From a virus (lineage: Duplodnaviria; Heunggongvirae; Uroviricota; Caudoviricetes), in IMG/VR virus record IMGVR_UViG_2706794662_000007: DNA of 64,000 nt, one strand, 5' to 3'. Made by a program: the position numbers and the translations under genes. Every line of letters begins with the position of its first letter. The first letter of the stretch is position 1. Under the pieces are notes generated by a model. That model worked only from the letters and a program-made list of their open reading frames with translations, was not told the origin of the DNA and did no database searches. Positions 2,324 through 55,321 of this stretch are shown here, piece by piece.

Positions 2324-2574
2324 CTGCGCTCGATATTGGCATTGATGAAATCCAGGCGAAGAGACTCCATCGCCCCTACCATGACATACGGGCGCCCGCC
2401 GTTATGCCAGCAATCAAGAACACTGCCGTCGTTGTTGATCATCAACAGCGCCAGGCTCTGGCTTTTTCCTTCTCTGGCGTGCTGAAGTGCTTCTTCCAGC
2501 AGGCGGATGACTTCCACGTTGTTGTTATCAGTCTCTTTCGATGGCTTCAGCTCTACGATCTTCAAATCAGGCAT
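2320..2574 (-). CDS. hypothetical protein
   Basis: 84 aa ORF, coupled to flanking genes by overlapping start and stop. Confidence 0.4.
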   Translation of the reverse strand: MPDLKIVELKPSKETDNNNVEVIRLLEEALQHAREGKSQSLALLMINNDGSVLDCWHNGGRPYVMVGAMESLRLDFINANIERR

Positions 2575-3205
2575 ATTCCACCTTCACGCGTTCTTTGTAG
2601 TGCTTGGTGATCTGCATATCCGGGCGCAGCGCGTTCTTCAGGTCTTCGTGAGTCGTCGCCACCATTACCGTCGCACCAACCTTTCGAGCGGCACGCTGGA
2701 GGTTAGACGCCACAACCTGAGCGGTTACACGGTCTAGAACAGCGCCGAACTCGTCAGCAGCCCATACTTTAGCGCCTGACTCAATCAGTTTGGCAATCTT
2801 GAGACGATATTTCTGGCCGTCTGACATTTCAGAAGGCTTGCGAACAAACAGATATGCATCGTTCAGACCAGCCATAGATAACAACCCAAGCGCATCACTG
2901 GTCGTTTTGCCCAACTGATCGATGACGTTAACCTCATTATCGAAGGTAAAATCATCGATGGAGGCTACAGACAGCCCTTCATCCTTCATCTGTCGTTGCA
3001 ACTCGCGCAGCACAACGGATTTGCCGGAACCGGATTGGCCGGTGATGTACACCACATCGCCCTGCTTCACTTCCAGCTCCAGATTGTCGTAAAGCGTCCA
3101 CTCTTTTTCGTCCAGGCCAAGCCCGAACGACTCAGCGATTTCCAACGTGCGCGTGGTTTTATTTACGCGTGTCTGAAACGATACGTTGATGATGTATTTG
3201 CTCAT
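2567..3205 (-). CDS. standalone ABC-type ATPase (nucleotide-binding domain only)
   Basis: Walker A GQSGSGKS, ABC signature MSDGQKYR, Walker B VWAADEF, H-loop ATTHE; only 212 aa and no transmembrane partner nearby. Confidence 0.7.
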   Translation of the reverse strand: MSKYIINVSFQTRVNKTTRTLEIAESFGLGLDEKEWTLYDNLELEVKQGDVVYITGQSGSGKSVVLRELQRQMKDEGLSVASIDDFTFDNEVNVIDQLGKTTSDALGLLSMAGLNDAYLFVRKPSEMSDGQKYRLKIAKLIESGAKVWAADEFGAVLDRVTAQVVASNLQRAARKVGATVMVATTHEDLKNALRPDMQITKHYKERVKVEYA

Positions 3206-3870
3206 GCAGCCATCTCCCCGGAAGAGATTTTCTCCGCATATGCCACAAATGCGTCTACCCCGCTTTCTCCCGTCATTTCTTCCATGTGGGCAAGCAAATC
3301 ACCAACAACAATGGCAGAGCCAGCAGGAAGCGTTTTAAAGCCCAATACGTCGACAACACGTACTTCTTCCGCTGCAACTTCACGACTGATCTCGGTGTGT
3401 TCATCCTTCTGTCGTTTAGTTTCTTCGCCAAGATCGATAACTAGCGAGTCGGTGTCCATTTCTTCTGTCATACTGCCAACGAGAACATTCAACTCACGCT
3501 CTTCGAAGCCGAAAACCTCGATATCGTCCAGAACAAGCGACTCAAGCTCTTTCTGTAGCTTAATTGCATCGTAATCAATGCTGGCAAGTCGGTTATCTTC
3601 AAGGCGCTTCGCACGAACCTCGTCATCACTGAGATCATCGCGAACAATAACCGGTACACGCTCAAGTCCAGCAAAAATTGCAGCCTCACGACGGCCGTGG
3701 CCAGTAATAATTACGTCGTTCTTATCGACCGTAATTGGCTGGTCAAATCCGCGCTTTTTAATGGCTGCGGCCAGATCTCTGATCTGCTGTTCATCATGCT
3801 TTTTGGCATTCATCTCATAGGGAATAAGATCTGCCGGGTCGCGATATACGATTTCAAACTTTTTGGTCAT
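3202..3870 (-). CDS. ParB N-terminal domain (ParB/Srx-like nuclease fold) protein
   Basis: ParB-NTD motif ITGHGRREAA; start moved to internal ATG (M12 of track ORF) that overlaps upstream stop as TAATG with GGAG ribosome-binding site. Confidence 0.65.
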   Translation of the reverse strand: MTKKFEIVYRDPADLIPYEMNAKKHDEQQIRDLAAAIKKRGFDQPITVDKNDVIITGHGRREAAIFAGLERVPVIVRDDLSDDEVRAKRLEDNRLASIDYDAIKLQKELESLVLDDIEVFGFEERELNVLVGSMTEEMDTDSLVIDLGEETKRQKDEHTEISREVAAEEVRVVDVLGFKTLPAGSAIVVGDLLAHMEEMTGESGVDAFVAYAEKISSGEMAA

Positions 3871-4568
3871 TACATACGCTCCTTGTAGTAGTCGACCAGC
3901 CACACCAGAGCCTCACCAGCGTTCTCCATTTCATTACCGGTGTTAATAGCCTGCTCTTTGATGATGTTTTTTATGGTTTCTGCAACACGATCTGACGCAT
4001 CGAAAGTTACTTTGAAGCGCATGGTCTGATGTTCCGCCCCCACACGTTCGGTTTTCTCTCGTTTGTCGGTATCGACAGGCTCATCACTACCACGAGACAA
4101 CGCCTCCAGTGCTTCAAGGTCGATTGCCGCCTCTTTTGCTAAAACCATCGAGATTTCGTCGTCATACGGGGCGATTTCAGACAGTTGATAGTCAAGTTCT
4201 GACTGAATTTCTTCAATGAAGCGTTGCAATGCGATTTGGTCGTCTTCACCGTATCGCTCGTTGTCCACCAGTGACATCTGTTTAGCTACGACATCGCTAA
4301 TTTTGCCCACAGAAAGCACTGGAACCGTTGAAATTCCTTGCTCAATAGCGGCACGCCAGCGATGTTCGCCGCCGAGGATTTCAAAAAATCCATCTTCAAG
4401 TTCACGAGCCAAAATTGGCTTAAAAAAGCCCAATTTTTCGATAGAACCTTTCAGTTTTTCGAAATTCTGCGCACCAACCGAATTGGTGTTCCAGGTATTC
4501 GGGCGAAGGTTGGCAACATCAACCTGCAAAATCGTGATTTTTACGTCCATTTTATTGCTACAATCCAC
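3870..4568 (-). CDS. ParB N-terminal domain protein (paralog of neighbour)
   Basis: ParB-NTD motif ILGGEHRWRAA; first gene of leftward operon; motif B upstream at 4567-4589. Confidence 0.65.
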   Translation of the reverse strand: MDCSNKMDVKITILQVDVANLRPNTWNTNSVGAQNFEKLKGSIEKLGFFKPILARELEDGFFEILGGEHRWRAAIEQGISTVPVLSVGKISDVVAKQMSLVDNERYGEDDQIALQRFIEEIQSELDYQLSEIAPYDDEISMVLAKEAAIDLEALEALSRGSDEPVDTDKREKTERVGAEHQTMRFKVTFDASDRVAETIKNIIKEQAINTGNEMENAGEALVWLVDYYKERM

Positions 4569-4632
4569 TAAGTAATCACTTACTTATTATAATAGCCAAA
4601 TAACATACAAAAGGCACTAAGGAAAGAGGTTT

Positions 4633-6192
4633 ATGACTGTTCGGATTGTATCTAACGCAGTAAATGCGCTTATTTCTGGCGCAGATGACAAGGTAAAGCA
4701 ACTGGTGCAGCAAATGTTGAGCTACGAAGTCGAGGCTGGCGACTGGAAGGGCACAAGCACAATGTTCAACTGGAGCAAAAACTCGTTCCCTGCTGGCTTT
4801 GCCAAGCCCGTGGCGGCTAATTTGAACAAGGCGGGCATCAAATGTGTTCATATCCGCAAAGACAAAGCCCCGGCGCTTGGTAAACCAAATCCGGCGGTTA
4901 ACCCATTCCCATACAATCCTGATTATGCGTATCAGGATCAGACTGTGGAAACACTGGTTCGAGAGGGAATGATGATTGCGCAGATCGCTACTGGTGGCGG
5001 GAAATCTAACGTTGCCTGCAAAGCAGCTGCACGTATCGGTCGAATGACATTATTTTTAACAACCCGCTCTGTTCTGATGTTTCAAATGGCCGAAAACTTC
5101 CAGAGATCCATCGACTACCGCGCCAAAAATGGCGAACCGTGGTTAAAAGACCAAAAGGTTGGAGTCATTGGCTCGGGTGAGTTCCAGGTATCACGACATA
5201 TCAACGTCGCTACAGTTCAAACTCTTGCAAGTTTCCTCGAAGAACCACCACGCGATGCAACACCAGATAAGAAAAGCTACCACCTCAAACGTCGGGAGTT
5301 GGTGAAACGCTTCCTTTCAAGTGTCTCTCTTCTTATTCTGGAAGAGGCGCATGAGTCTTCAGGCTCAAATTTCTATGACATCGCCAGATTATGTGTGAAC
5401 GCAGACTATCGTCTGGCGCTTACAGCCACGCCGTTCATGAAGGATTCGACGGAAGCCAACATGCGCCTGATGGCGGTGGCCGGGCGAATTGAAATTAAAG
5501 TCACAGAAAAGTATCTGATTGATCGAGGCATTCTGGCAAAGCCGTACTTCCTTTATCATAAAGTTGCCTACAAGCCAGACGAGGCCAGAATCAAGGCCGA
5601 ACTTGCCAACAAACACCTCAATTTTAGAGTTGGTATGAGCACCGCCTACCAAAAGGCTTATCAGTTGGGGATCGTGTATAATTTGGGACGTAACGAGGCC
5701 ATTGTGCGCGAAGCATTGCTCTATAAGCAACATTCTCTCAATTGTATGACTCTGGTTCGCCTTAAACGCCACGGGCAAATCCTGATGGAAATGATGAAAG
5801 AGTCCGGCCTTAGAGTTGACTTCATCTATGGGGAATCTAACCAGGCGACAAGGCAAGCAAAGCTGAACAGTTTAGCGTCTGGAGAAATAGATGTTTTAAT
5901 AGGCTCGACTATTCTGGATGTCGGTGTTGATGTGCCAAGCGTTGGTGCGGTCATTCTTGCTGGTGGTGGGAAAGCAGAAGTTGAAATGAGGCAGCGTGTC
6001 GGTCGTGGCTTACGAGCCAAGAAGAATCAGGCAAACGTGTGTTTTATCACTGATTTCATTGACATTAGCAACAAATACCTGTTGTCTCACTCTTATGAGC
6101 GAAAACACATCATCGACACCACACCTGGCTTTGCAGAAGGTGTATTGCCTATTGATGGCGCATTCGATTTTGGAGTTCTGAAACGAGATTAG
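4633..6192 (+). CDS. SF2 (DEAD/DEAH-type) helicase
   Basis: Walker A ATGGGKS, Walker B LILEEAHE, motif III TATP, motif VI QRVGRGLR. Confidence 0.8.
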   Translation: MTVRIVSNAVNALISGADDKVKQLVQQMLSYEVEAGDWKGTSTMFNWSKNSFPAGFAKPVAANLNKAGIKCVHIRKDKAPALGKPNPAVNPFPYNPDYAYQDQTVETLVREGMMIAQIATGGGKSNVACKAAARIGRMTLFLTTRSVLMFQMAENFQRSIDYRAKNGEPWLKDQKVGVIGSGEFQVSRHINVATVQTLASFLEEPPRDATPDKKSYHLKRRELVKRFLSSVSLLILEEAHESSGSNFYDIARLCVNADYRLALTATPFMKDSTEANMRLMAVAGRIEIKVTEKYLIDRGILAKPYFLYHKVAYKPDEARIKAELANKHLNFRVGMSTAYQKAYQLGIVYNLGRNEAIVREALLYKQHSLNCMTLVRLKRHGQILMEMMKESGLRVDFIYGESNQATRQAKLNSLASGEIDVLIGSTILDVGVDVPSVGAVILAGGGKAEVEMRQRVGRGLRAKKNQANVCFITDFIDISNKYLLSHSYERKHIIDTTPGFAEGVLPIDGAFDFGVLKRD

Positions 6193-6194
6193 TT

Positions 6195-6473
6195 ATGAGC
6201 GAAAAGAAAACAACTTATTGTCAGGTGGCATTGTCCGATAAGGCCAATGACAAACTTGGAAAGTTTCAAATGAAACTAAAAGAAAAAAACATCAAAATGT
6301 CTAAGGCTGAAGTTATCAATACCATTCTGGAGACGATGACGATGGCTGAATTTGACAAAGTTTCATCTGCCGTTGGAGTCTCTGCTAAGGCTCGTGAGAA
6401 AATCATGCGCATCTATGAGAACTCTAATATGACAAAGGAAGATTTAGAGCAAATTCTAAGCAAACTGCCGTAA
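6195..6473 (+). CDS. hypothetical protein
   Basis: 92 aa ORF 3 nt after helicase stop; followed by hairpin terminator. Confidence 0.45.
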   Translation: MSEKKTTYCQVALSDKANDKLGKFQMKLKEKNIKMSKAEVINTILETMTMAEFDKVSSAVGVSAKAREKIMRIYENSNMTKEDLEQILSKLP

Positions 6474-6528
6474 TATTGGATTCTTAGTCAATTTCAGAAT
6501 TGCCAGACTTGAAGAGCTAATAGACAGA

Positions 6529-6561
6529 GTGCGGCAACAACGCCTTTGCCGCACAGCTTTT
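6529..6561 (+). terminator. rho-independent terminator-like hairpin
   Basis: gtgcggcaa...ttgccgcac stem followed by agctttt. Confidence 0.5.
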
Positions 6562-6654
6562 AGAGAAAACACGTCTGCTATTTACAGTTGAAAACTTATC
6601 GTTTGAGACTATTGGATATTTATAATTCTACTTTGCAATAATCGCTGTATAAAA

Positions 6655-7248
6655 ATGAAACGTTCGTTACTTCTTGCTTGTATATACCTCTCGTCATTTT
6701 CCGCCAATGCGTTGTCAGATATCGTCTCCGACATGCAAAAAACGTACAGCATGTATACTTCTGAAGACGTACTAAAATACGAATCACGAGGTCTGATTCA
6801 ACCAGTCTGGTTCAGATTCTCAGATAACGCAGAAGAAACAATACTTAATGCAGGAAAAGAAAGATTACGGTTGCAAATTAACGGAACCGCTGTACCAGAA
6901 AACGTTAATGTAAGCTCTGACGAAGCCATGAAGCCATCTGGAATTGTTTTGGAAGTTCAAGACGGCACACTTTACTGTGATGAAATGGCTACAACAGGTT
7001 GCCAAGTAAACATTAGGGTTGGCAATGAAGAGCCTATCGTTACTTACGCCAAGGCTGAAGGGAATACAAGTGGAAAGGTATTGTTTATCGATGAAAATAC
7101 CTCAAAACGTATCGTTCGTGACATACAGAAAACAGCGAACTCTAAATCCGTCGATAAAAAAATCTATGTTGAGGTTCCCTTCTTTGTCGTTGGTAACAAA
7201 GAATTTAAATTTGGGTTGCTGAAAACACCTCTAAGAGTATCAGAATGA
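6655..7248 (+). CDS. secreted protein with cleavable signal peptide (hypothetical)
   Basis: N-terminus MKRSLLLACIYLSSFSANA; in AT-rich island; stop overlaps next start (ATGA). Confidence 0.5.
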   Translation: MKRSLLLACIYLSSFSANALSDIVSDMQKTYSMYTSEDVLKYESRGLIQPVWFRFSDNAEETILNAGKERLRLQINGTAVPENVNVSSDEAMKPSGIVLEVQDGTLYCDEMATTGCQVNIRVGNEEPIVTYAKAEGNTSGKVLFIDENTSKRIVRDIQKTANSKSVDKKIYVEVPFFVVGNKEFKFGLLKTPLRVSE

Positions 7249-7766
7249 GAACATTGGACATCACCTACGGCATACCGGCTGAAGTATGGCCGCGAGACTA
7301 CGAACATGCTGAACGTACCTTGCTCTTCTGGCGGAGTGCAAAATTTCCTGTAAGAGTCACTCTCGAAGACGGCCAAGTGTTTTGCATGTATGTCTACGGG
7401 CTATTGAGCGCAAGAAATAAGCTGAACCTCACACCAGATCCGCTTAGCAACACAAATCGTATAAGGCTCCCTCTTGAGCGCATTAGCACAATTGAGTCGG
7501 GCATAGAAGAGGTTGACACTTCATTCACAGGTCGACTAACGCTAAACAATGAACAGATGGTTAATCAGCCATCACGTCGTGACTTTTTTAAGATATGTCG
7601 TCAGGCTTACCAAAACGGCAAATCTATAAGGGTCTACATGGCAGACGGTCGCGAAATTGAGGGAACGTCAGATGGCGTTGACGCCTGTCTAGTCACACTT
7701 AAGTTGGAAGACGGTAGAAAAATACTTATTTTCTTCGATTGGGTTGAACGAATCCTTCCGTTTTAA
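7245..7766 (+). CDS. hypothetical cytoplasmic protein coupled to secreted protein
   Basis: 173 aa ORF overlapping upstream stop. Confidence 0.5.
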   Translation: MRTLDITYGIPAEVWPRDYEHAERTLLFWRSAKFPVRVTLEDGQVFCMYVYGLLSARNKLNLTPDPLSNTNRIRLPLERISTIESGIEEVDTSFTGRLTLNNEQMVNQPSRRDFFKICRQAYQNGKSIRVYMADGREIEGTSDGVDACLVTLKLEDGRKILIFFDWVERILPF

Positions 7767-7780
7767 TTTCTATAAGGGTA

Positions 7781-7808
7781 ATAACCGGCTAAGTCCGGTT
7801 ATTATTTT
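7781..7808 (+). terminator. terminator-like hairpin
   Basis: aaccggctaagtccggtt stem followed by T-rich run. Confidence 0.45.
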
Positions 7809-7959
7809 ACATGCCATTCATTTTATACTCTTTCAATTCTACCCCGTATAAATATATAAGGTCTAAAGCCGGAATCGATTATTTATTTAGGGAACACCCT
7901 CGACGATCTAACATTTATTTCTAGGACTTTCATCCCTGCAAAAAAACTTAAAAAAACAC

Positions 7960-7988
7960 TTGCAATCTTTTTTCGCGTATCGATAATT
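7960..7988 (+). promoter_or_regulatory. candidate sigma70 promoter for 8064 gene
   Basis: TTGCAA, about 17 bp spacer, GATAAT, roughly 75 bp upstream of ATG with AGGA ribosome-binding site. Confidence 0.35.
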
Positions 7989-8063
7989 GAACGCATCAGG
8001 AACGAGTGCAAAACACTTTCTTTCTTGAGTTAAATTTTAATATTTATACTAAGGAATAAAATC

Positions 8064-8714
8064 ATGGCTAACATTATCATTTCTAAAAAGTCCATCATTG
8101 AAGCTGCATCTATTGTATCCGACGAACTGCGCGAAAAAGCAGATCTGGCAACTCAAACATATAACGAACATTATAAAAATGGTACGCACACTAAAGCAGA
8201 CAAAGCAAATATGCAAGCTGCGACCACTAAACTTGCTTACTTCATCAACAACGTCGTAAACGCTGTAGAAGACGAAAAATTATGCTCTGTTTTCTACTAT
8301 GCGATTAAAGCAAGCAAACAAGCGCCAGAAGTATTTTTTCGTGACGCTATGACTAATAGTTATTCACTGGAAAAACTGGTTTATCTGGTTAAATCAATTA
8401 AAGCTGGAAAATGTGTTTATTCCGTCGCTGATATGTCTGGATCTCGTGTATTCGCTTTAATCGATATGATTAACGACGAGATCGACACGTTCACGAATGG
8501 CGCTGTTTTCGATTTAATGAATGAAGCCAAAAAAGCGTGTGAAATTAAATTGGACGCTGGCTATACTCAAGCTAACCAGCTAATCAATCTTTGCGAACGT
8601 CTCGGACTTGTTGAGAAAGTCAAAGGAATGGGAAGCGCCAAAGCTGGTACACAGCAATATCGCTTTATCAAGAATGATTTCTACAATTATCTAGCTGACG
8701 CTTTCAAAGCGTAA
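8064..8714 (+). CDS. hypothetical protein (AT-rich island)
   Basis: 216 aa ORF, low GC codon usage, AAGGA ribosome-binding site. Confidence 0.5.
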   Translation: MANIIISKKSIIEAASIVSDELREKADLATQTYNEHYKNGTHTKADKANMQAATTKLAYFINNVVNAVEDEKLCSVFYYAIKASKQAPEVFFRDAMTNSYSLEKLVYLVKSIKAGKCVYSVADMSGSRVFALIDMINDEIDTFTNGAVFDLMNEAKKACEIKLDAGYTQANQLINLCERLGLVEKVKGMGSAKAGTQQYRFIKNDFYNYLADAFKA

Positions 8715-8763
8715 TTAATGGAATCAAGCGCCCACTATGGGCGCTTTAAAGGAGCTTTAAAAA

Positions 8764-8967
8764 ATGGTCAGCTATGACAAGATCCGCGCGGAATATCGCG
8801 CAAAGTATCGCGCTTATAAACTAGAATTAATCAATGATTTAATCGCGCAACGCGACCAATTAAATTTTACGTTTTCTGATTTGCTTAACAGCAAACGAGA
8901 TTGCAAGCGTAAACGTGAATACTTACGTTTAAGCGCATTAATCGGAAAACTTCATAATTCTATTTAA
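8764..8967 (+). CDS. hypothetical small basic protein
   Basis: 67 aa ORF with AGGAG ribosome-binding site. Confidence 0.4.
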   Translation: MVSYDKIRAEYRAKYRAYKLELINDLIAQRDQLNFTFSDLLNSKRDCKRKREYLRLSALIGKLHNSI

Positions 8968-8987
8968 TTTTTTTAAGGAGCTTAATC

Positions 8988-9215
8988 ATGGTTATTTTCA
9001 TCTCTGGCGTAAATATCAATAATCATACTCTTGTTTATGATATTGCTGGTTTAGCTGGATATGCTCTAAGTTCTGAAGTGGTTGATGAAACAACGTTTAA
9101 AATAAACATCAATGACGTAGAACATAGAGCGCGCGCAGGAATCAATGAAGCAGATGTTACTTTAATGCTTCAAGAATTTTTAAACGCTGGTTTTAATATT
9201 CGCTTAGAAAAATAA
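8988..9215 (+). CDS. hypothetical small protein
   Basis: 75 aa ORF with AAGGAG ribosome-binding site; followed by strong terminator. Confidence 0.4.
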   Translation: MVIFISGVNINNHTLVYDIAGLAGYALSSEVVDETTFKININDVEHRARAGINEADVTLMLQEFLNAGFNIRLEK

Positions 9216-9222
9216 AAACAAT

Positions 9223-9247
9223 AGCGCCCATAGTGGGCGCTTTTTTC
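9223..9247 (+). terminator. rho-independent terminator
   Basis: agcgcccatagtgggcgct stem followed by tttttt. Confidence 0.6.
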
Positions 9248-9579
9248 GTTTCCAATACTCCCACCATAACGCGCCAATGATGGCGCGTTTTTTATTGTCT
9301 TTGACTCACTCCAACAACATAAAAATAAGCGCCAAAATAACGCCATAGACGCGCTTTTATATCCTTGCCAGTACATACCCATTACTTAACACATTAACGC
9401 GCTTAAAACGCGTTATATTGCGCTATAGCGCATAGTTAATCATTGGCTTTTAGTCTTGCTATGTGATCCGCGTTTATTTGTCGGCGCGGATCGGCATTTT
9501 GTTTTGTTCCGTATCCGCTCGCGTATTATGTGCGCGTGATTTTTCACATAATCACACCACTTAATCACGTATGCGATTA

Positions 9580-9843
9580 NNNNNNNNNNNNNNNNNNNNN
9601 NNNNNNNNNNNNNNNNNNNNNNNNNNNNNNNNNNNNNNNNNNNNNNNNNNNNNNNNNNNNNNNNNNNNNNNNNNNNNNNNNNNNNNNNNNNNNNNNNNNN
9701 NNNNNNNNNNNNNNNNNNNNNNNNNNNNNNNNNNNNNNNNNNNNNNNNNNNNNNNNNNNNNNNNNNNNNNNNNNNNNNNNNNNNNNNNNNNNNNNNNNNN
9801 NNNNNNNNNNNNNNNNNNNNNNNNNNNNNNNNNNNNNNNNNNN
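9580..9843. other. N-run (masked or unresolved sequence)
   Basis: 264 consecutive n. Confidence 1.
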
Positions 9844-10324
9844 ACACGCCATCAAGGATGTGGATGCGGTTGCTTGCGTATACATTCAGCATAAAGTTAG
9901 CGCAAAACAGTTTCCATGTATCAACGCCAGCGGTATACGTAATGTTTTTGCATTTAATTGCATTGTTGGCGATCCGCATCCCCTGCGATACTGCTTCATC
10001 GTCGGAAAATTTGAACGACGATTGAGTTTTAATCCAGACAGAAATCTGCGTAGCGAACTCAATCAGCTTGGACTGGCAGAATCGCCCGGAGCGCACCGGA
10101 AAGACGAACGTTCCGAATCCAGAATTTACCACATACGCTTTCTCAAATACCCGCGAGTAACGACGATTGCCAATGATGTCGCGTGCAATAATGCATTTTT
10201 CTTGTGCTGACAGTTCTACCGTCTCATTGTCGCGCCATGCACCAAGTACTCGTTTTTCAATGTCAGAGAACGTTACAGCGATATTGCCATGTGCGGGTGC
10301 GTTTACAGTAGCGATAAAATTCAT
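9844..10324 (-). CDS. hypothetical protein, 3' end lost in N-run
   Basis: ORF starts MNFIATVNAPAHG at 10324; motif A at 10343-10360 upstream; true stop unknown. Confidence 0.4.
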
Positions 10325-12841: not shown

Positions 12842-14412
12842 CTCTTCATCCTCACTTCGTTTCTATAACGTCTAAATATGCTGTTTACTTGTTGGTGTTA
12901 TTATCGCAATAAGATAAAGGCGAAAAAGGATTTTATGTCGGGAAAGCCAGGCTGGGCAGTGAATATCCGGGAACGACACGAGAGCCAGTATTTACGATAT
13001 TCTGCTCTACGCGCGCCGCGGGGCTGGTGGGTAGAATAATCCTCTCCCCGAAAACCTACTGAAATCGATTGTGACCCGCTGGCTGTCTGGCACAATTACG
13101 CTGTATCTGGCATTCAGAGGGAATCCAGCGGTAAGCAAGTCAGCCTGCACGTGAGCGCCTCTCTTCTTCCCGCACATTACAGGTGGGTAGCTGCAACTCT
13201 CTCTCTCTCGCTATACCGGTACGCCGCCGTTCCAGAACCGGCATCGAGCCTTTTCCCGAAATCCACACAGGCAACTCGACCGTTTCCCTGAAAATCCCCA
13301 GCCGTTCCCCCGAAGGCAACCCAGCCGTTTCTGTAGCTGGATGCAACCTTTTCCCTGTATGGACCGAAGGCTGACCGTAGGGGGTGTTACGGGGGATAAA
13401 ATCAGGAGTTGAATAAATACGAAAAAGGAGGCGACCCCCCTCCTTCCCTCTCCACTTATACATACCTGGCTTCTTCGCTATACATGTTGTGTTTTATCTG
13501 TCTCAACCTCTCTATAGGCGTTAATGCTCACTCCTTCCAGAATGTTCTATACGGCGACTATTTCTGTTGGTGAATTGGGTGTGTTGTTTTCTCTGTCGGT
13601 GTATGTGGTTTCGTTAGTTTTGCGGTGGTTCTTCTATGGGGGTGTTCTCGTCGTTTTGGTGATTGTTCTTCTCCGTGTATGGAGTAATGGCAGGTGGGCG
13701 ATTGCTTTCGTTATTGTGTTTGAGTTGTTTGTCTGGAGTGTGTGAAGGCTTTTGTAGTTATTCGTGTATTGGGTAATGGCGTTTCCCGTGATTGTTATGT
13801 TTCGTGTCTTTTGGGATTGAGAGAAACCTTGCGGTTACAGGCTTCGTTAGGGTTTCAGCGGTTCAGGTGTTTCTTCGCTGTTTGGGTAATGGCGTGTCGT
13901 GGGTATCGCGCGTATGAATGTTTTCGGATTGCCTGTGAAAGTTAGGTTGGTTGTCCGGTAGCCTGGGGAGAAGAGGTGGGTCTTTTCGGTAGCCTGCCAT
14001 AAAGAGGTTGGTTGTTTTGGGTAATGGCATATGTGTTATTTGGTTGTTTTGTTATGCCTGAAAATAAGTTGTTTATATGGTTGTGTAACGCAACGGGAGC
14101 GATTTTGAGCGTGTGTTTTTGTTGGTAGTGTGTTGAGTCGTCTGTGGTGAAATTTGGACGCTGTGGCGCTATCTGCTGCGTAGAATTACGGGTATAAGAA
14201 GTGATGTGTGATAACGTCAATTTTTTAGACCAAATCGGGAGAAAGCGTTGATGTTTCGTTGATCTGTTATTTAGTTGTTTTCTTATTGGTATAAACAACC
14301 ATAACCTATTGATATTTAATGATGTGATTGCTGGTATGGGAGGGTAGTAGTGGCGATCAACGGGTTCTTATAGAAAAGAATCAAATTGTGACCGCCATTA
14401 TCAACGGTTTGA

Positions 14413-15095: not shown

Positions 15096-17034
15096 TTACT
15101 TAACCTGGTGGCCAGGTTTAGCACCAGCATCCGGGCTTAACAGGAAGATATCTTTCCCGCCAGGACCGGCAGCCATCACCATGCCTTCAGAGATACCGAA
15201 GCGCATTTTACGTGGTGCCAGGTTAGCCACCATAATGGTGTGACGACCAATCAGTGCCTGTGGATCTGGATAAGCGGAACGGATGCCTGAGAAGACATTA
15301 CGCTTTTCACCACCGAGATCCAGCGTCAGGCGAAGCAGTTTGTCAGAACCTTCGACAAACTCCGCGTTTTCAATCAGCGCCACACGCAGGTCAACTTTGG
15401 CGAAGTCGTCAAAGGTGATGGTTTCCTGAATCGGTTCGTCAGCCAGTGGGCCAGTTACCGGTGCAGCTGTGGCTTTCACTTCTTCTTTGGATGCTTCCAC
15501 CAGTGCTTCCACCTGTTTCATATCGATACGGTTATACAGTGCCTTGAACGGATTCACTTTATGGCCCAGAAGCGGTTGCTGGATACCATCCCAGGTCAGT
15601 TCTGTATTCAGGAATGCTTCTGCACGTTCAGTCAGTTTCGGCAGTACCGGTTTCAGGTACGTCATCAGCACGCGGAACAGGTTAATGCCCATAGAGCAAA
15701 TCGCCTGCAGATCTGCATCGCGACCTTCCTGCTTCGCCACCACCCACGGAGCCTGTTCATCGACATAGCGATTAGCCAGGTCAGCCAATGCCATGATTTC
15801 ACGGATAGCTTTACCAAATTCGCGGCTTTCCCATGCTTCGCCAATCACTTCAGCGGCATCAGTAAAGGTTTTGTACAGTTGCGGGTCAGCCAGTTCGCTT
15901 GTCAGCACGCCGTCAAAACGCTTGTTGATAAAGCCTGCATTACGGGAGGCCAGGTTAACCACTTTGTTCACGATATCGGCATTCACGCGCTGAACGAAAT
16001 CTTCCAGGTTGAGATCGATATCATCAATGCGCGAAGAGAGTTTCGCAGTGTAGTAGTAACGCAGGCTGTCAGCGTCAAAATGATTCAGCCAGGTGCTGGC
16101 TTTAATAAAGGTGCCGCGAGACTTGGACATCTTCGCGCCGTTCACCGTCACATAGCCGTGAACAAACAGGTTGGTCGGCTTGCGGAAGTTGCTGCCTTCC
16201 AGCATGGCAGGCCAGAACAGACTGTGGAAGTAAACGATATCTTTGCCGATGAAGTGGTACAGCTCGGCGGTGGAGTCTTTCTTCCAGTATTCGTCGAAGC
16301 TTACGCTGTCGCCGCGCTTGTCGCACAGATTCTTGAAAGAACCCATGTAGCCAATCGGCGCGTCCAGCCAGACGTAGAAATATTTGCCCGGCGCGTTCGN
16401 NNNNNNNNNNNNNNNNNNNNNNNNNNNNNNNNNNNNNNNNNNNNNNNNNNNNNNNNNNNNNNNNNNNNNNNNNNNNNNNNNNNNNNNNNNNNNNNNNNNN
16501 NNNNNNNNNNNNNNNNNNNNNNNNNNNNNNNNNNNNNNNNNNNNNNNNNNNNNNNNNNNNNNNNNNNNNNNNNNNNNNNNNNNNNNNNNNNNNNNNNNNN
16601 NNNNNNNNNNNNNNNNNNNNNNNNNNNNNNNNNNNNNNNNNNNNNNNNNNNNNNNNNNNNNNNNNNNNNNNNNNNNNNNNNNNNNNNNNNNNNNNNNNNN
16701 NNNNNNNNNNNNNNNNNNNNNNNNNNNNCTCTTCGCTGTGCGTCGAGTGATAGTTGTCATAGCTGATGTTAAAGCCTGCGAAATCAGTCTGATGTTCCTG
16801 ACTCATTTCGCCAATCATCTGTTCCGGTGTGATACCAAGCTGCTGTGCTTTCAGCATGATTGGCGTACCGTGGGCATCGTCGGCACAGATGAAATTAACC
16901 TCGTGGCCGCGCATTCGCTGGTAACGAACCCAGACATCAGCCTGGATGTGCTCCAGCATATGGCCGAGGTGGATTGAGCCGTTAGCGTACGGCAGCGCGC
17001 ACGTCACCAGAATTTTCTTCGCGACTTGGGTCAT
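15096..17034 (-). CDS. metG: methionyl-tRNA synthetase (interrupted by N-run 16400-16728)
   Basis: Start [29 protein letters not shown] (HIGH-type motif) and C-terminus ...[24 protein letters not shown] match E. coli MetG as I recall it; the two flanking ORF fragments are in different frames because of the N-run. Confidence 0.95.
16400..16728. other. N-run inside metG
   Basis: 329 n. Confidence 1.
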
Positions 17035-18904: not shown

Positions 18905-19423
18905 CTAAAAATCAAANNNNNNNNNNNNNNNNNNNNNNNNNNNNNNNNNNNNNNNNNNNNNNNNNNNNNNNNNNNNNNNNNNNNNNNNNNNNNNNNNNNN
19001 NNNNNNNNNNNNNNNNNNNNNNNNNNNNNNNNNNNNNNNNNNNNNNNNNNNNNNNNNNNNNNNNNNNNNNNNNNNNNNNNNNNNNNNNNNNNNNNNNNNN
19101 NNNNNNNNNNNNNNNNNNNNNNNNNNNNNNNNNNNNNNNNNNNNNNNNNNNNNNNNNNNNNNNNNNNNNTTTAAAGGAAGATAGGTTCCCCATAGTAGCT
19201 GTCTGCCGTGCGCTCGTGTGAAATACCGGGCCATCTTCGGATTGCTATGCTGCTTAGGAGCGCCTGGTCTGTATGTCTGATACCCGGCCAACATCCCATC
19301 AAACCTGTATAGAGGGAATGTAACAACTCCTTCGCTTTCATCGATCCACTGTCTATATGGATGCACATCATAGCGGTAGTTACGAGTTAGCAAATGAGCT
19401 TCCAGCTTTCCAAATTTAGTCAT
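18905..19423 (-). CDS. hypothetical protein (interrupted by N-run)
   Basis: Start set to MTKFGKLEAH with GAGGGA ribosome-binding site; C-terminal part and frame uncertain. Confidence 0.35.
   Translation of the reverse strand: MTKFGKLEAHLLTRNYRYDVHPYRQWIDESEGVVTFPLYRFDGMLAGYQTYRPGAPKQHSNPKMARYFTRAHGRQLLWGTYLPLXXXXXXXXXXXXXXXXXXXXXXXXXXXXXXXXXXXXXXXXXXXXXXXXXXXXXXXXXXXXXXXXXXXXXXXXXXXXXXXXXXXXXFDF
18917..19169. other. N-run
   Basis: 253 n. Confidence 1.
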
Positions 19424-21475: not shown

Positions 21476-21748
21476 TTAACCCGCAGTGCNNNNNNNNNNN
21501 NNNNNNNNNNNNNNNNNNNNNNNNNNNNNNNNNNNNNNNNNNNNNNNNNNNNNNNNNNNNNNNNNNNNNNNNNNNNNNNNNNNNNNNNNNNNNNNNNNNN
21601 NNNNNNNNNNNNNNNNNNNNNNNNNNNNNNNNNNNNNNNNNNNNNNNNNNNNNNNNNNNNNNNNNNNNNNNNNNNNNNNNNNNNNNNNNNNNNNNNNNNN
21701 NNNNNNNNNNNNNNNNNNNNNNNNNNNNNNNNNNNNNNNAGTTGCCAT
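21476..21748 (-). CDS. hypothetical protein (mostly masked by N-run)
   Basis: ATG at 21748 preceded by conserved junction GGAGAGTGATATG; body is n. Confidence 0.3.
   Translation of the reverse strand: MATXXXXXXXXXXXXXXXXXXXXXXXXXXXXXXXXXXXXXXXXXXXXXXXXXXXXXXXXXXXXXXXXXXXXXXXXXXXXXXXXXXXXTAG
21490..21739. other. N-run
   Basis: 250 n. Confidence 1.
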
Positions 21749-25187: not shown

Positions 25188-26892
25188 TCATTTAACGCGT
25201 TTGAAAACGTATACGCTGACTGTGATCCCTGTGTCTTCAAACTCGTTGGTAAACGACTTCCCTCTGGCATAAACGTAATTATCCATCGTCATCCAGTCCA
25301 GTATTGGCGCNNNNNNNNNNNNNNNNNNNNNNNNNNNNNNNNNNNNNNNNNNNNNNNNNNNNNNNNNNNNNNNNNNNNNNNNNNNNNNNNNNNNNNNNNN
25401 NNNNNNNNNNNNNNNNNNNNNNNNNNNNNNNNNNNNNNNNNNNNNNNNNNNNNNNNNNNNNNNNNNNNNNNNNNNNNNNNNNNNNNNNNNNNNNNNNNNN
25501 NNNNNNNNNNNNNNNNNNNNNNNNNNNNNNNNNNNNNNNNNNNNNNNNNNNNNNNNNNNNNNNNNCCAGATCGGCGTTAATATAGGCCAGAAGATCCCCA
25601 CGTCCGGCTTGAGGCTCCAACAGCTTCTCACCAGGCTTCAATTCAGTGGCTCTGGCAACGTACTCAGCAATCAAGCGTGGGGTAGGGTAGAACTGGTGTG
25701 ATTTTGTATCCGGTATTAAACCGGTAGCCACAATCGTATTTAGCGTATGGCCGATCTCATACGGGAACTGCCAGTGCTTTTTCTCCTGCACGCCGCCAAT
25801 GAAGCTCAGTGTGCGCTCAAGCTCTTCCACCTGCGACTTCTGGAGAGCTGAATCAGAGAAGTACCATACGCCTTTGTCTTTGCTCAATCGCCCGTCACGA
25901 AGCGCAGTGCGAACCGGCACGGAGATCGTCTTCTGGATTAACCCGAACTGCTTTGGTGCCCGTGTTTTTGGCGCAGTTCGGCATGGCGCGGGGATTGCAG
26001 CAGGCATACTGTAAGCCAGCACCTCATTCAACTTCCAGGCCACGTCAGGATGTATTTCAAAGTGAACGTTGCCGTTCTTGAACATCTTCACGCGCATCAG
26101 ATTTCCATCGACGTTCATCCAGTCACCGGTCTGGCAGTCGTTTGCCCGATACGCAGCTGATAGCACCTCAGCAGTGCGGTTGATGGTAATAAATTCTTTG
26201 TGCGCGAAGAAATGAAGCAAGACACGCAGATCGTCGATGTAGTCCTCTTTGCGATAGTTCACGCTAACGCTGTCACGCCAGAAATCAGAAATGCAGTCAG
26301 CGATTATCAGACGCTCGCTGAAACCGTTTGTCTTATTTGTCTTGTGCGCAGGACTCAGCGCCTTAAACAAGCCATACACGCGCTCAGAGAGATATTTGTG
26401 CCTGTCATTCAGCAAATTAAGCATCGTTGGTATGACCGTTTCTGCTTTGAACTCCGGTACACCAACGAACTCTTTAACCTTCATCTGATAGCCGGTTCTG
26501 TCAGTTTTGATGACTTCCTGCTTGCCCTCGATAAATAGCTCACGCCACTCGTCGCGACGGGAAGCTGGCATGATCAGCAGAACGTTAGTCATATCCGTAA
26601 CCTTCCTCCAGTACTCGGCCCAAATATTCTGTTTCACCCATTCCAGATCGACGTTATCCAGCCAGACTCGATTCAAACGTGAGCGATCTTCATCTGGTCG
26701 GTGGTTTAGTCGAAGCAGGCGATTAATCATGTTGTGGCGTTCATCGCCATAAACGAAGTCGTGTACCTGATACATGAAGGAGATCTCTTTCTCGCACTCG
26801 GCCACAATTTCGTGGATGACGTTCATTTCCTGTCGATAGTCGATAGCAGTGTTTGAGCTGGCATCGCCCATGATGGAAAGGGCTGTATTCAT
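25188..26892 (-). CDS. putative N6-adenine DNA methyltransferase with large N-terminal extension (C-terminal part masked)
   Basis: FYPTPRLIAEYV followed by EPQAGRGDLLAYI (motif X then motif I, gamma-class order) just before the N-run; the catalytic (D/N)PPY region would lie in the masked part. Confidence 0.45.
25311..25565. other. N-run
   Basis: 255 n. Confidence 1.
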
Positions 26893-43272: not shown

Positions 43273-45195
43273 AGCTGCGCCCCTCTTTAACTTCCAGCGT
43301 AATAGTTTCCCGGAACCATGACTTCATCTCTTTATGGGAGATAATCAGCACAGTACCTCGCTCGCGAGCTTTGGACTCCAGAATACCCATGAGGCGTTCA
43401 AGACCGGCTGTATCGAGTGCATCGTCAATTTCGTCGCCGATAAACAAATCGATGTTTTTACTCGCCCGGTTACTAACCAGATCCTGCAATGCCAAAGAAC
43501 ACGCAATGCGAACCTTCCGCTTCTCACCACCAGAGAGGGTCTGGAACGACTTACTTGAACCTTTCTTCTGCACACTAATGTTGAATTTGTCGCGATACTC
43601 ACCTTTTTTGGTGACATCCATCGTCGACCACTCAGCAGTAATATTCCCGTCAGACAACGTATTGAGATACTCGGCAGTGCGTGTATTCAGGAAAGGCGTA
43701 ACAGACGTCAAAATATGAGAACGCACCCCGGCAGGAGAGTAGACCTGACGAGCTTTTTCCAATAGCAACGTTTGTTCCTGAATAGCCTTCAACTCATCTT
43801 TTAAGGACTTGAAGGTAGACTTACTGGATACCAGGTTATCTTCGTGTCTGGCGATAAGAGCAATAAACGGATTAATCTCTTTTGATATACGATCGACCTC
43901 AGTACGAGCACGAGTCACAAGAGACTCAATAGCAACAATCTCCTTCTCACGATGACGCAAAGATGAGAGTTGTTTCGTAAGCTCTTCAATCCGGGCAATG
44001 ATAGCCGTTACATCAGGTGTCGTTTTAACAAGGGCAGACTCAATGCTTAACGCTTTCTCAAGATTCGTTTTGTGTTTAGCCATTGCCTCTGCAAGTGTCT
44101 TCGCCTGACCAATTTCCTGACGTGCTTGTTCAATGAAATTCTCCTTCACCGTTGATAGATCTTCTTCGCAGTAGGCTTTGCCACAAGTAGGGCATGGTGA
44201 TCCCACTTTAGTACCAACCTCTTCTGCTTTGGTCTTAAAATTACGCGCGCGGTTCATTGCATCAGCCTGACTATTTTCTGTAGCTTTGATGCTTGCCCGA
44301 ATATCAGTTATCGCACCACGAACNNNNNNNNNNNNNNNNNNNNNNNNNNNNNNNNNNNNNNNNNNNNNNNNNNNNNNNNNNNNNNNNNNNNNNNNNNNNN
44401 NNNNNNNNNNNNNNNNNNNNNNNNNNNNNNNNNNNNNNNNNNNNNNNNNNNNNNNNNNNNNNNNNNNNNNNNNNNNNNNNNNNNNNNNNNNNNNNNNNNN
44501 NNNNNNNNNNNNNNNNNNNNNNNNNNNNNNNNNNNNNNNNNNNNNNNNNNNNNNNNNNNNNNNNNNNNNNNNNNNNNNNNNNNNNNGATTGTCGACTCCA
44601 ATTTGGTTTTAACCACATCCATACGTGCGGCAGCTGCATTAGCTCGCTCACGAGCAATAGCGTAGGCGCGTGTCAGTCTGTCAACGCCAGCGGCTTCTTC
44701 TACGATGGTTTTGAGGTTTTTGTCGGACATTCCAGGTAAATCTGGCATAGCTTCTTGGCTCGCATAGATGGAAGCCATGAAAACCTCTTTAGATGCACCG
44801 ATCAGACGCTCGACGAACTCTTGCGTCAGCGCATCTTTGCCTTTCGTCATATCGCCGTCTTCACCACGAACGATAAGCCGATTTTTGAACTCTTTGTGTT
44901 TACGGTGACGAATGATCGCATATCTCTTGCCTTCATCCTCGATGGTTACTGCAACACGACAGTTCTTTTCATGGTCGGTAGACAACACATCGTCACCCTT
45001 CACACCATGAGCTGTTTCGCCATAAAGACACCACATCAGGCTATTCATTAGCGTTGACTTTCCAGAGCCATTACTTGATGCGGAACTATCATCACTATTA
45101 ACACCCTGAATGAGCACTAAACCACGCTGATCTAACTCGACCTCCGCGCTGGCGATAGCCATAAAATTCTCAACCTGGAGCTTTAAAAACTTCAT
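43262..45195 (-). CDS. SbcC/Rad50-like ATPase (gp46-like), interrupted by N-run 44324-44586
   Basis: N-terminal Walker A GSNGSGKST; C-terminal signature LSGGEKRK and Walker B LFIGDEID; coiled-coil middle. Confidence 0.8.
44324..44586. other. N-run
   Basis: 263 n. Confidence 1.
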
Positions 45196-54230: not shown

Positions 54231-55321
54231 TTACTCTTCTACTGACTCGGTGGGGTTGTCTTTTGCTCTTCGGTCGTCGATTGCCTGCAAAGCCGCAATG
54301 ATTTCAGCCAGTGGCTTCTCCCGATACATCTCGACGATCTGCGATTTGGTGTATTTCTTGTCACCAATTTCAACTCGCCCGCTGGCGTTCTTTGGCAGGT
54401 ATCCTTCTTCCAGCATGTACTCGACGAGCGATTCGATAACGTCGAGGCCACGAGTAGGATCGAAGTAGAATTTCCAGGTGCATTTGCCATACGGTGGTGC
54501 AACTTTGTTTTTGATGCATTCTGCGCCTACGTCCTGGCCGATCTTCTCTTTACCATCCTTCATCACCGATGCACCAAGACGGATACGTACAGAAGCGTAG
54601 AACTTCGGTGAATCTCCACCTGGAGACGTAGTAGGGTCGCCAAACATTACACCGATTTTTGTGCGAACCTGATTCAAGAAGATGATGCAGGCGTTGTATT
54701 TGCGTGCCCACAAAGCCAGAGTAGGGAAGTTCGCACTTGTCGCACGAGCCAGTGCCGTATTGTCGTTCATGTTTAGCTGATCTTTGTCTTTGGCAGTGCC
54801 TTCAGCCATCTTTTCGAACTTCTCGGCTTTGGAGTTCGGAACCATAGACGCAAGTGAGTCAGCCACGATACAGATAGGTGCTGATTCAGGAATAAGCTCT
54901 TCATCACGTACCAATTTAAGAATTGTGCCGATCAACTCTACAGAGTCTTCGAAGGTATCAGGCTGCTTGTATACCCACTGACCGTCATCCTCATCTGCAT
55001 TCAAACCATTGGCTACAGCCAGGCCAACGTCAAAACTGTTCTCATGATCGAGGANNNNNNNNNNNNNNNNNNNNNNNNNNNNNNNNNNNNNNNNNNNNNN
55101 NNNNNNNNNNNNNNNNNNNNNNNNNNNNNNNNNNNNNNNNNNNNNNNNNNNNNNNNNNNNNNNNNNNNNNNNNNNNNNNNNNNNNNNNNNNNNNNNNNNN
55201 NNNNNNNNNNNNNNNNNNNNNNNNNNNNNNNNNNNNNNNNNNNNNNNNNNNNNNNNNNNNNNNNNNNNNNNNNNNNNNNNNNNNNNNNNNNNNNNNNNNN
55301 NNNNNNNNNNNNTTTTGCCAT
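54231..55321 (-). CDS. RecA-family recombinase (UvsX/RecA-like), interrupted by N-run 55055-55312
   Basis: C-terminal part ...IIFLNQVRTKIGVMFGDPTTSPGGDSPKFYASVRIRLG matches the RecA core (loop L2 region); N-terminal ATG at 55321; Walker motifs presumably masked. Confidence 0.8.
55055..55312. other. N-run
   Basis: 258 n. Confidence 1.

Follow-up and report, generated by a model that had tools for sequence, protein, structure and literature searches.

A conserved AT-rich arm of an SSU5-type phage-plasmid carries a putative FljA-family translational repressor gene next to an exchangeable exported-protein cassette

FljA represses phase-1 flagellin in Salmonella enterica, and proteins of the FljA type, including those encoded by mobile elements, block translation of the fliC messenger RNA (mRNA) (PMC2652032; PMC3378880). 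On mobile elements, FljA(z66) of the linear plasmid pBSSB1 of S. Typhi and FlkB of the flk islet of E. coli act in trans on the chromosomal fliC gene (PMC1876496, PMC2652032, PMC3378880), and the flagellin-linked members of the family are 67–98% identical to one another (PMC2652032). Another FljA-family gene on a mobile element is described here. It is located in a 64,000-nucleotide stretch of the Caudoviricetes record IMGVR_UViG_2706794662_000007 (the window), which is assigned, because of its megablast matches to plasmids and phages, to a phage-plasmid of the SSU5/pHCM2/pMT1 type (a group described in PMC7969092). FljA(z66) and FlkB are always paired with an alternative flagellin (fljB z66 and flkA, respectively) and serve antigen switching, whereas no flagellin is encoded here. 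The gene is part of a block at positions 6480–9440 that the original prediction, made from the sequence alone, had described as an AT-rich plus-strand island of five unrecognisable genes, typical of horizontally acquired cargo and a candidate exclusion, defence or anti-defence module. Most of this block is a conserved AT-rich regulatory arm of the element and not a recently acquired island.

Each of the five open reading frames (ORFs), all on the plus strand, matches a PHROG family with E-values of 1e-40 to 1e-140, and they can therefore be regarded as real genes; RefSeq calls the same five coding sequences on the identical plasmid NZ_CP053753. The GC content of 6480–9440 is 38.9% against 45.9% for the window, the second lowest value of 399 same-size windows (standard deviation 2.4%), so the block is indeed AT-rich. 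The sharp drop in composition holds for the block overall, but not for the gene of the 173-amino acid protein, which has a backbone-like GC content of 45.8%. The hairpins reported at 6529, 7781 and 9223 are present, with predicted energies of −14 to −16 kcal/mol. The upstream boundary is different from the one proposed: the plus-strand run begins not at 6480 but at 4633, 1.85 kb earlier, with the genes of a DEAD/UvsW-like helicase of 519 amino acids and of a 92-amino acid protein (phrog_1466; together 4633–6473, identified from ORFs, RefSeq and PHROG). That the same-strand block includes this backbone helicase speaks against an island.

The 173-amino acid protein (gene at 7245–7766, plus strand; phrog_1444) is recognisable, contrary to what had been stated for all five proteins. 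It matches the FljA family PF03614 (Flag1_repress) over its full length (profile positions 1–170 of 170) with an E-value of 1.4e-68 and a score of 230.5 bits, for a cut-off of 24, and the same profile matches 13 of 13 aligned relatives. To the FljA protein encoded directly 3' of the flagellin gene on the Salmonella plasmid pRM11060-2 it is 36% identical over 168 amino acids. The motifs DITYG..E.WPRDY, PSRRD.F.IC and DWV.RI are invariant and common to the flagellin-linked proteins, and the alignment (A3) contains 25 invariant columns. The likeness to the Salmonella repressor thus includes full-length homology and common invariant motifs, and both genes are second in a two-gene operon, behind the gene for a protein that leaves the cytoplasm. 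However, in place of flagellin the partner here is a Sec-exported protein or a lipoprotein, differing from lineage to lineage; there is no hin-type invertible promoter; and the FljA-like proteins of these elements form a separate deep branch, about 36% identical to the flagellin-linked members. The setting thus departs from the known one in having no flagellin partner, in the gene being a core gene of a phage-plasmid supergroup, kept in non-flagellate Klebsiella, and in the adjoining slot for exported proteins. Where synonymous sites are unsaturated, the ratio of non-synonymous to synonymous substitution rates (dN/dS) of the gene is about 0.1.

The relationships of the protein suggest a putative RNA-binding translational repressor. 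Its carboxy-terminal half resembles Sm/Hfq proteins at sub-threshold level, with Pfam Hfq matches in seven of 13 members (best E-value 5.7e-4) and LSM matches in three of 13. The top matches of a profile search against the PDB are the Hfq-like protein MJ1435 and Bacillus subtilis Hfq, both weak (E-values 0.2–0.9), and hhalign gives a probability of 2% for the comparison with E. coli Hfq. FljA may be built of Sm-like barrels. Separately, residues ~26–60 and 120–165, one stretch in each half of the protein, both present a pattern like the Sm1 motif of Hfq. In public databases the copies of SSU5 and pHCM2 are already annotated as flagellin repressors, some of the entries reading "repressor of phase 1 flagellin", and a literature search found no paper studying the FljA homologues of SSU5, pHCM2 or pMT1. 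A scan of a genome collection, made with clade-specific search patterns, found FljA-like genes at six loci, all of phage-plasmid type, and SSU5-like phages are the only ones among phage records to have members of the family. On the element itself, comparison with the E. coli fliC leader gave only chance-level matches of 9–11 nucleotides. The gene is followed by an intrinsic terminator-like hairpin (7770–7809, plus strand, with the stem-loop at ~7775–7808, −15.3 kcal/mol), which is nearly invariant in all relatives (95% identity to a Klebsiella plasmid).

The preceding gene, for the 197-amino acid protein (6655–7248, plus strand; supported by ORF, PHROG and RefSeq), is located in a slot with variable contents. 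In pairwise BLAST comparisons, which took in SSU5, pMT1 and Klebsiella, Enterobacter and E. coli THO relatives, homology to all relatives without this gene ends at 6443–6459 and restarts at 7257. The segment 6460–7256 (plus strand) is therefore a replaceable cassette of about 0.8 kb, made up of a hairpin (6529–6554, −16.0 kcal/mol), a promoter-like site of the extended −10 type (6613–6642, plus strand, a consensus match only) and the 197-amino acid protein gene. Of the whole block, this segment alone is truly swappable cargo. The protein starts with a Sec-type signal, MKRSLLLACIYLSSFSANA/LSD, identified by inspection from its positive start, hydrophobic core and ANA/L site. Its gene overlaps the FljA-like gene by the sequence ATGA and is translationally coupled to it, as expected from the proposed coupling of a secreted protein to the 173-amino acid protein. 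The signal and two invariant cysteines (Cys108 and Cys116) are kept in its homologues, and the protein is beta-rich. The family is tiny, with eight matches among 1.84 billion representative proteins in an exhaustive profile search and 15 relatives, all close, in a word-based homology search.

Other lineages fill the slot differently. In SSU5, pMT1, Enterobacter and one E. coli plasmid it contains the gene of a lipoprotein of 140–154 amino acids (weak match to DUF2846; phrog_890), in the common Klebsiella plasmids that of a related 145-amino acid lipoprotein on the opposite strand, in another Klebsiella type those of a 199-amino acid protein and a 118-amino acid signal-peptide protein, and in Escherichia phage Cyrano those of a 199-amino acid protein and a 266-amino acid lipoprotein, while in a distant Klebsiella plasmid it is empty. 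An exported protein or lipoprotein is thus encoded next to the repressor gene in five of the six slot configurations examined, and in two lineages a secreted protein of about 98 amino acids has been added 3' of the FljA-like gene. Exclusion lipoproteins encoded by phage morons and lysogenic-conversion cassettes, such as Llp of T5 and Cor of phi80 and N15, are a second system with which the locus can be compared. The cassette and its neighbour resemble a moron in being a small unit of lower GC content with its own promoter-like site and terminator-like hairpin, in encoding an exported protein, in being present in some relatives and replaced in others, and in that the orthologous neighbourhood in Cyrano is transcribed in the prophage state. 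The resemblance is limited to about 0.8 kb of the 3 kb, and the 197-amino acid protein has no sequence or fold similarity to known exclusion proteins. A surface-conversion or exclusion role of this putative exported protein is plausible.

The remainder of the block is an old part of the element. The order of two ParB genes, then helicase, 92-amino acid protein, slot, FljA-like protein, 216-amino acid protein and small ORFs, and then a 160-amino acid protein gene is common to SSU5, Y. pestis pMT1 and Klebsiella, Enterobacter and E. coli plasmids, and is also found in the aforementioned distant Klebsiella plasmid, where the FljA-like protein is 38% identical. In tblastn searches of the 72,556 plasmids of PLSDB, the FljA-like protein was found in 831 plasmids (full length in 821), of which 341 are from Klebsiella and 62 from Y. 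pestis; the hosts also include the flagellated Escherichia, Salmonella, Enterobacter and Citrobacter. The 216-amino acid protein was present in 815, against a reference count of 789 for the helicase at an identity of at least 80%. The 67-amino acid protein occurred in 517 plasmids, the 75-amino acid protein in 414 (123 of them at an identity of at least 80%) and the 197-amino acid protein in only 65. In the relatives, where the block lies at the same position, the 216-amino acid protein gene has 38–41% GC and the spacer before it 30–35%. This low GC, alike in all relatives checked, is therefore an old, stable property of the backbone and not a mark of recent import.

Presence or absence among close relatives, as expected of an island, does not apply to the block as a whole; it applies to 6460–7256 and partly to the cassettes of the 67- and 75-amino acid proteins, and to that extent the proposal of horizontally acquired cargo is supported in part. 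In the distant Acinetobacter phage-plasmids, which keep the module of ParB, ATP-binding cassette (ABC) ATPase, helicase and 92-amino acid-size protein genes, the FljA-like and 216-amino acid protein genes are undetectable, and a 233-amino acid neighbour has no remote homology to the 216-amino acid protein. One possibility is therefore an ancient gain of the block by the ancestor of the enterobacterial elements. A copy of the region, with the 92-amino acid protein gene and a degraded-looking FljA-like gene (48% identical) that has no adjoining flagellin gene, is located in the E. coli chromosome CP125919.1 (385158–397682), and suggests an integrated, decaying SSU5-like element.

Expression of the orthologous genes can be read from published RNA sequencing data on Cyrano (pLF82) in LF82, given as log2(fpkm+5), where fpkm stands for fragments per kilobase per million (PMC9928086, S1 Table). 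The Cyrano homologues are 98% (216-amino acid protein), 90% (92-amino acid protein) and 75% (FljA-like protein) identical to those of the window. The FljA-like gene CYRAN_114 has a value of 4.2 in overnight lysogeny broth (LB), whereas the four remaining conditions, with bacteria in fresh medium or in macrophages, give 7.0–8.1; for the slot lipoprotein gene CYRAN_115 the values are 4.8 and 7.9–9.4. CYRAN_117, encoding the 92-amino acid protein, has 7.2 in overnight LB and reaches 9.9, is 12 times above background in the lysogen and is counted by the authors among the highly expressed genes (PMC9928086). For CYRAN_113 (216 amino acids) the values are 2.3–2.8 in overnight LB, 2.8–3.9 in other conditions and 5.6 at 6 h in macrophages, and for CYRAN_112 (75 amino acids) 2.3, 3.0–4.4 and 4.4–4.9, respectively. 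These two genes stay at the floor until 6 h in macrophages, when the capsid and tail genes rise too. It follows that Cyrano, as a plasmid prophage, expresses the FljA-like unit but not the 216-amino acid protein unit. The putative lysogeny repressor of Cyrano, CYRAN_45, is a separate gene elsewhere on the element.

Between the FljA-like terminator and the 216-amino acid protein gene lies an AT-rich regulatory spacer (7810–8063, plus strand) with 32% GC, conserved blocks, a promoter-like site and a leader. The roughly 300 non-coding nucleotides before the gene, including the terminator, have a mean column identity of 79% (alignment A4). They contain a sigma-70-like promoter (7960–7987), CTTGCA and GATAAT at a spacing of 16 nucleotides, conserved in A4 as CTTG.. 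and TATCGATAATT with 17 nucleotides between them, followed by a leader of about 70 nucleotides with a small predicted 5' hairpin. The 216-amino acid protein (8064–8714, plus strand; ORF, PHROG) is predicted by AlphaFold2 (AF2) to consist of an amino-terminal helical domain and a carboxy-terminal winged-helix domain, with a mean predicted local distance difference test score (pLDDT) of 83 and a predicted template modelling score (pTM) of 0.74. It is at least 80% identical across genera, its family is confined to SSU5-like elements, and it has no Pfam match; the amino-terminal helical half is unmatched in PDB and BFVD. To winged-helix regulators of the ArsR/SmtB, MarR, PadR and TubR types the identity is only 6–15%. 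The model points to a putative DNA-binding regulator encoded by a core gene of the supergroup. Homology and structure searches thus placed the 173- and 216-amino acid proteins, in the FljA family and among winged-helix proteins respectively, and left the 197-amino acid protein without a match.

The explanation towards which we lean, with a confidence slightly better than even, is a two-unit regulatory arm, in which a lysogeny-expressed exported protein and a translational repressor are followed by an early regulator unit. In the first unit (~6613–7809), the swappable cassette would bring its own promoter-like site and the Sec-exported 197-amino acid protein, whose gene, coupled by ATGA to that of the FljA-family protein, would be transcribed as far as the invariant terminator. 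The second gene belongs to the FljA family and is coupled to the first, the cassette has sharp boundaries, and the orthologous unit of Cyrano is transcribed in the prophage state. The 173-amino acid protein would, like FljA, bind the leader of a target mRNA and block its translation; by homology, the likeliest target in flagellated hosts would be the host flagellin (fliC) mRNA. With this target, less flagellin would be made in a cell that carries the prophage, while the prophage's own exported protein would be placed in the envelope, a surface conversion that might also exclude other phages. In the second unit (~7960–9290), a conserved promoter and leader would drive the genes of the winged-helix protein and of the two small cassette proteins, up to two terminators. 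From its silence in the Cyrano lysogen, it is probably an early or lytic regulator unit and not a lysogeny repressor. An analogy can be drawn with PapX and MrpJ, motility repressors whose genes are the last of fimbrial operons and which are DNA-binding transcription factors acting on flhDC. In these operons too, genes for a surface structure are expressed together with one that represses flagellar synthesis, an analogy that holds only if the target here is flagellin, and PapX and MrpJ are not homologous to FljA.

Several points weigh against this explanation, most of them against the flagellin target. Klebsiella is normally without flagella, and the FljA-like gene is intact in the 341 Klebsiella plasmids. 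S. Typhi carrying pHCM2 is typed H:d, and thus makes flagellin. In LF82, flagellin mRNA has a log2 value of 11.7, among the most abundant, while CYRAN_114 is transcribed. No flagellin gene is present in the loci read, those of this element, of its relatives and of Cyrano. Because the identity is only 36%, target specificity is not transferable from FljA, and in E. coli plasmids divergent FljA-like alleles (67–100% amino acid identity) are found between near-identical flanks. As to the arrangement in units, Cyrano carries a different slot cassette, and its expression is that of a relative and not of this element. Promoters and terminators were recognised only by their match to a consensus; promoter-like sites number 11, against 11.6 expected from shuffled sequences, and terminator-like sites 15, against 5.6. 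Finally, the 197-amino acid protein matches nothing in Pfam, NCBIfam or PADLOC and no known fold.

Conservation in Klebsiella, the missing linkage to flagellin, the high flagellin mRNA of LF82 and the divergent alleles are the reasons for giving some weight to a different, still doubtful explanation, namely that the FljA-like protein is an internal post-transcriptional regulator which represses an mRNA of the element itself (the leader of the 216-amino acid protein gene, or a lytic or replication transcript), with no part for flagellin. Also in its favour are the unchanging position of this core gene in about 830 plasmids of the supergroup, its presence in the distant Klebsiella plasmid, strong purifying selection with saturated synonymous sites, and its restriction, among phage records, to SSU5-like phages. 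Allelic divergence is evident in the comparison of the window with pTHO-010-2, where DNA identity is 96% upstream of the FljA-like gene, 71% within it and 89% downstream; this is the typical look of specificity or immunity determinants. Transcription of the gene in the lysogen while the adjoining 216-amino acid protein gene is silent agrees with internal repression as well. Against it, no target was found: the hairpin in the leader of the 216-amino acid protein gene has only two compensatory pairs among seven sequences and a consensus energy of −2.7 kcal/mol, and among the five to seven elements compared there is no clear correspondence between the type of leader and the FljA allele. Moreover, the only characterised members of the FljA family act on flagellin mRNA.

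Two further explanations give more importance to cargo. That only the 197-amino acid protein matters, as an envelope or periplasmic exclusion or receptor-masking cargo in a promoter-proximal slot, its coupling to the FljA-like gene being functionally meaningless, would fit a hotspot with sharp boundaries that holds different exported proteins or lipoproteins in different lineages. It would also fit the pairing of the same 197-amino acid protein gene with FljA alleles of 100%, 94-type and 75% identity (NZ_CP045278). It is nevertheless unlikely, as the protein has no homology or fold match of any kind and the slot is empty in one distant relative. That the whole 3 kb are a horizontally acquired, terminator-insulated exclusion, defence or anti-defence module, as first proposed, is judged very improbable. 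The low GC, the hairpins that bracket the units, the variation of the 197-amino acid protein gene and of the 75-amino acid protein alleles between relatives, and the failure to detect the block in Acinetobacter relatives, in which the helicase and ParB module is retained, speak for it, as does the fact that phage exported proteins and lipoproteins often mediate exclusion. Yet practically every enterobacterial relative has the FljA-like and 216-amino acid protein genes in this place, with the same low GC in all those checked, and the same-strand run takes in the backbone helicase. No mobility genes or flanking repeats of the block were seen. No protein of the block matches a defence-system model of PADLOC-DB, save for a weak, partial match of the 67-amino acid protein (PDC-M47B, E-value 0.007). 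A defence or exclusion gene should also be expressed in the lysogen, whereas the 216-amino acid protein unit is silent in that of a close relative.

A broader conjecture, to be regarded as quite unlikely at present, is that the FljA family consists primarily of post-transcriptional regulators of SSU5-type phage-plasmids, Sm/Hfq-like barrels with allele-specific RNA targets on the element, such as the leader of the neighbouring winged-helix protein gene, that contribute to holding the lytic programme off in the plasmid state, the Salmonella repressor being a domesticated offshoot and the slot a hotspot for envelope cargo. To a large extent the finding itself is ordinary, being a conserved backbone already present, and partly annotated, in public databases. 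Phage-plasmids of the SSU5/pHCM2/pMT1 type are common in clinical Escherichia, Shigella, Salmonella, Klebsiella and Enterobacter and in Y. pestis, and very little work has been done on how their lysogeny is controlled or on their conversion genes. If flagellin is the target, host motility and flagellin display would be altered, which bears on immune recognition, flagellotropic phages and H-typing; if the target is internal, the lysogeny of these phage-plasmids would be regulated at the RNA level by a protein of a new kind. In either case, a slot that collects diverse exported proteins and lipoproteins is a compact place in which to seek surface-conversion or exclusion functions.

The distal part of the block contains two small genes. 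That of the 67-amino acid protein (8764–8967, plus strand; phrog_6145) is a present/absent cassette, missing from pMT1. That of the 75-amino acid protein (8988–9215, plus strand; phrog_1585) is also a present/absent cassette, with divergent alleles, and is missing from SSU5, Enterobacter and the Klebsiella plasmid Kp954. Both genes were identified from ORFs and PHROG and are preceded by the same ribosome-binding stretch. The 67-amino acid protein is short, highly charged and coiled-coil-like. Its label in PHROG and SSU5, "MIT family metal ion transporter", is not plausible for a protein with no hydrophobic segment, and looks like an annotation error passed between records. The two genes are bracketed by hairpins with the same 8-bp GC-rich stem, AGCGCCCA...TGGGCGCT (two matches, none expected), one of 19 nucleotides, AGCGCCCACTATGGGCGCT, at 8727–8745 (plus strand) and the other at 9223–9241. 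The three-nucleotide loop is reversed between them, making the copies mutual reverse complements. These paired hairpins may be recombination points for gain and loss of the cassettes as well as terminators.

The block is closed, before the minus-strand genes, by two terminator-like hairpins, the one at 9223–9241 (−14.1 kcal/mol), which reads as terminator-like on both strands, and another at 9268–9289. Rfam gave only sub-threshold matches at 9223–9289, driven by these hairpins, and a search for transfer RNA genes found none. The convergent spacer in which they are located (9216–9440) contains five or six short palindromes with GCGC or CGCG cores in AT-rich surroundings and is 74–80% conserved in relatives; the palindromes may have a role beyond that of terminators.

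By megablast, 6195–9440 is 100% identical to four Shigella sonnei plasmids of about 108 kb (including LR213459 and NZ_CP053753, pMHMC-002) and 88–97% identical to many E. coli plasmids, with partial matches to Salmonella phage SSU5, Escherichia phages Cyrano and PhiR41_1 and Klebsiella phage-plasmids. In the RefSeq annotation of NZ_CP053753, one strand encodes terminase, two ParB-like proteins and an ABC ATPase; the other encodes a DEAD/DEAH helicase, after which come six genes labelled "hypothetical". The divergent module at 2567–6473, in which one strand encodes two ParB-like proteins as well as an ABC-type ATPase and the other the UvsW-like helicase and the protein of about 92 amino acids, is common to enterobacterial SSU5-type elements and Acinetobacter phage-plasmids (locus L015, 1443–6075). 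The identities between the two groups are 43% for the helicase, 60% for the ABC protein and 37–47% for the ParB proteins.

The window contains seven masked runs of N, 250–330 nucleotides each (9580–9843, 16400–16728, 18917–19169, 21490–21739, 25311–25565, 44324–44586 and 55055–55312), which give rise to false, X-filled long ORFs (for instance 9440–10324) and false dips in GC; the unmasked letters are found in NZ_CP053753. The very low GC near 9500–10000, just past the block, is an artefact of the first of these runs. Further downstream, 13470–14300 is a non-coding region of about 0.8 kb, G+T-rich on the plus strand (GC skew up to +0.45, AT skew down to −0.5), in which T(T/G)GGGTAATGGC is present in four same-strand copies, at 13680, 13769, 13882 and 14017 (0.36 expected by chance). 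No tandem array was detected in this region, which could be an iteron, centromere or packaging site.

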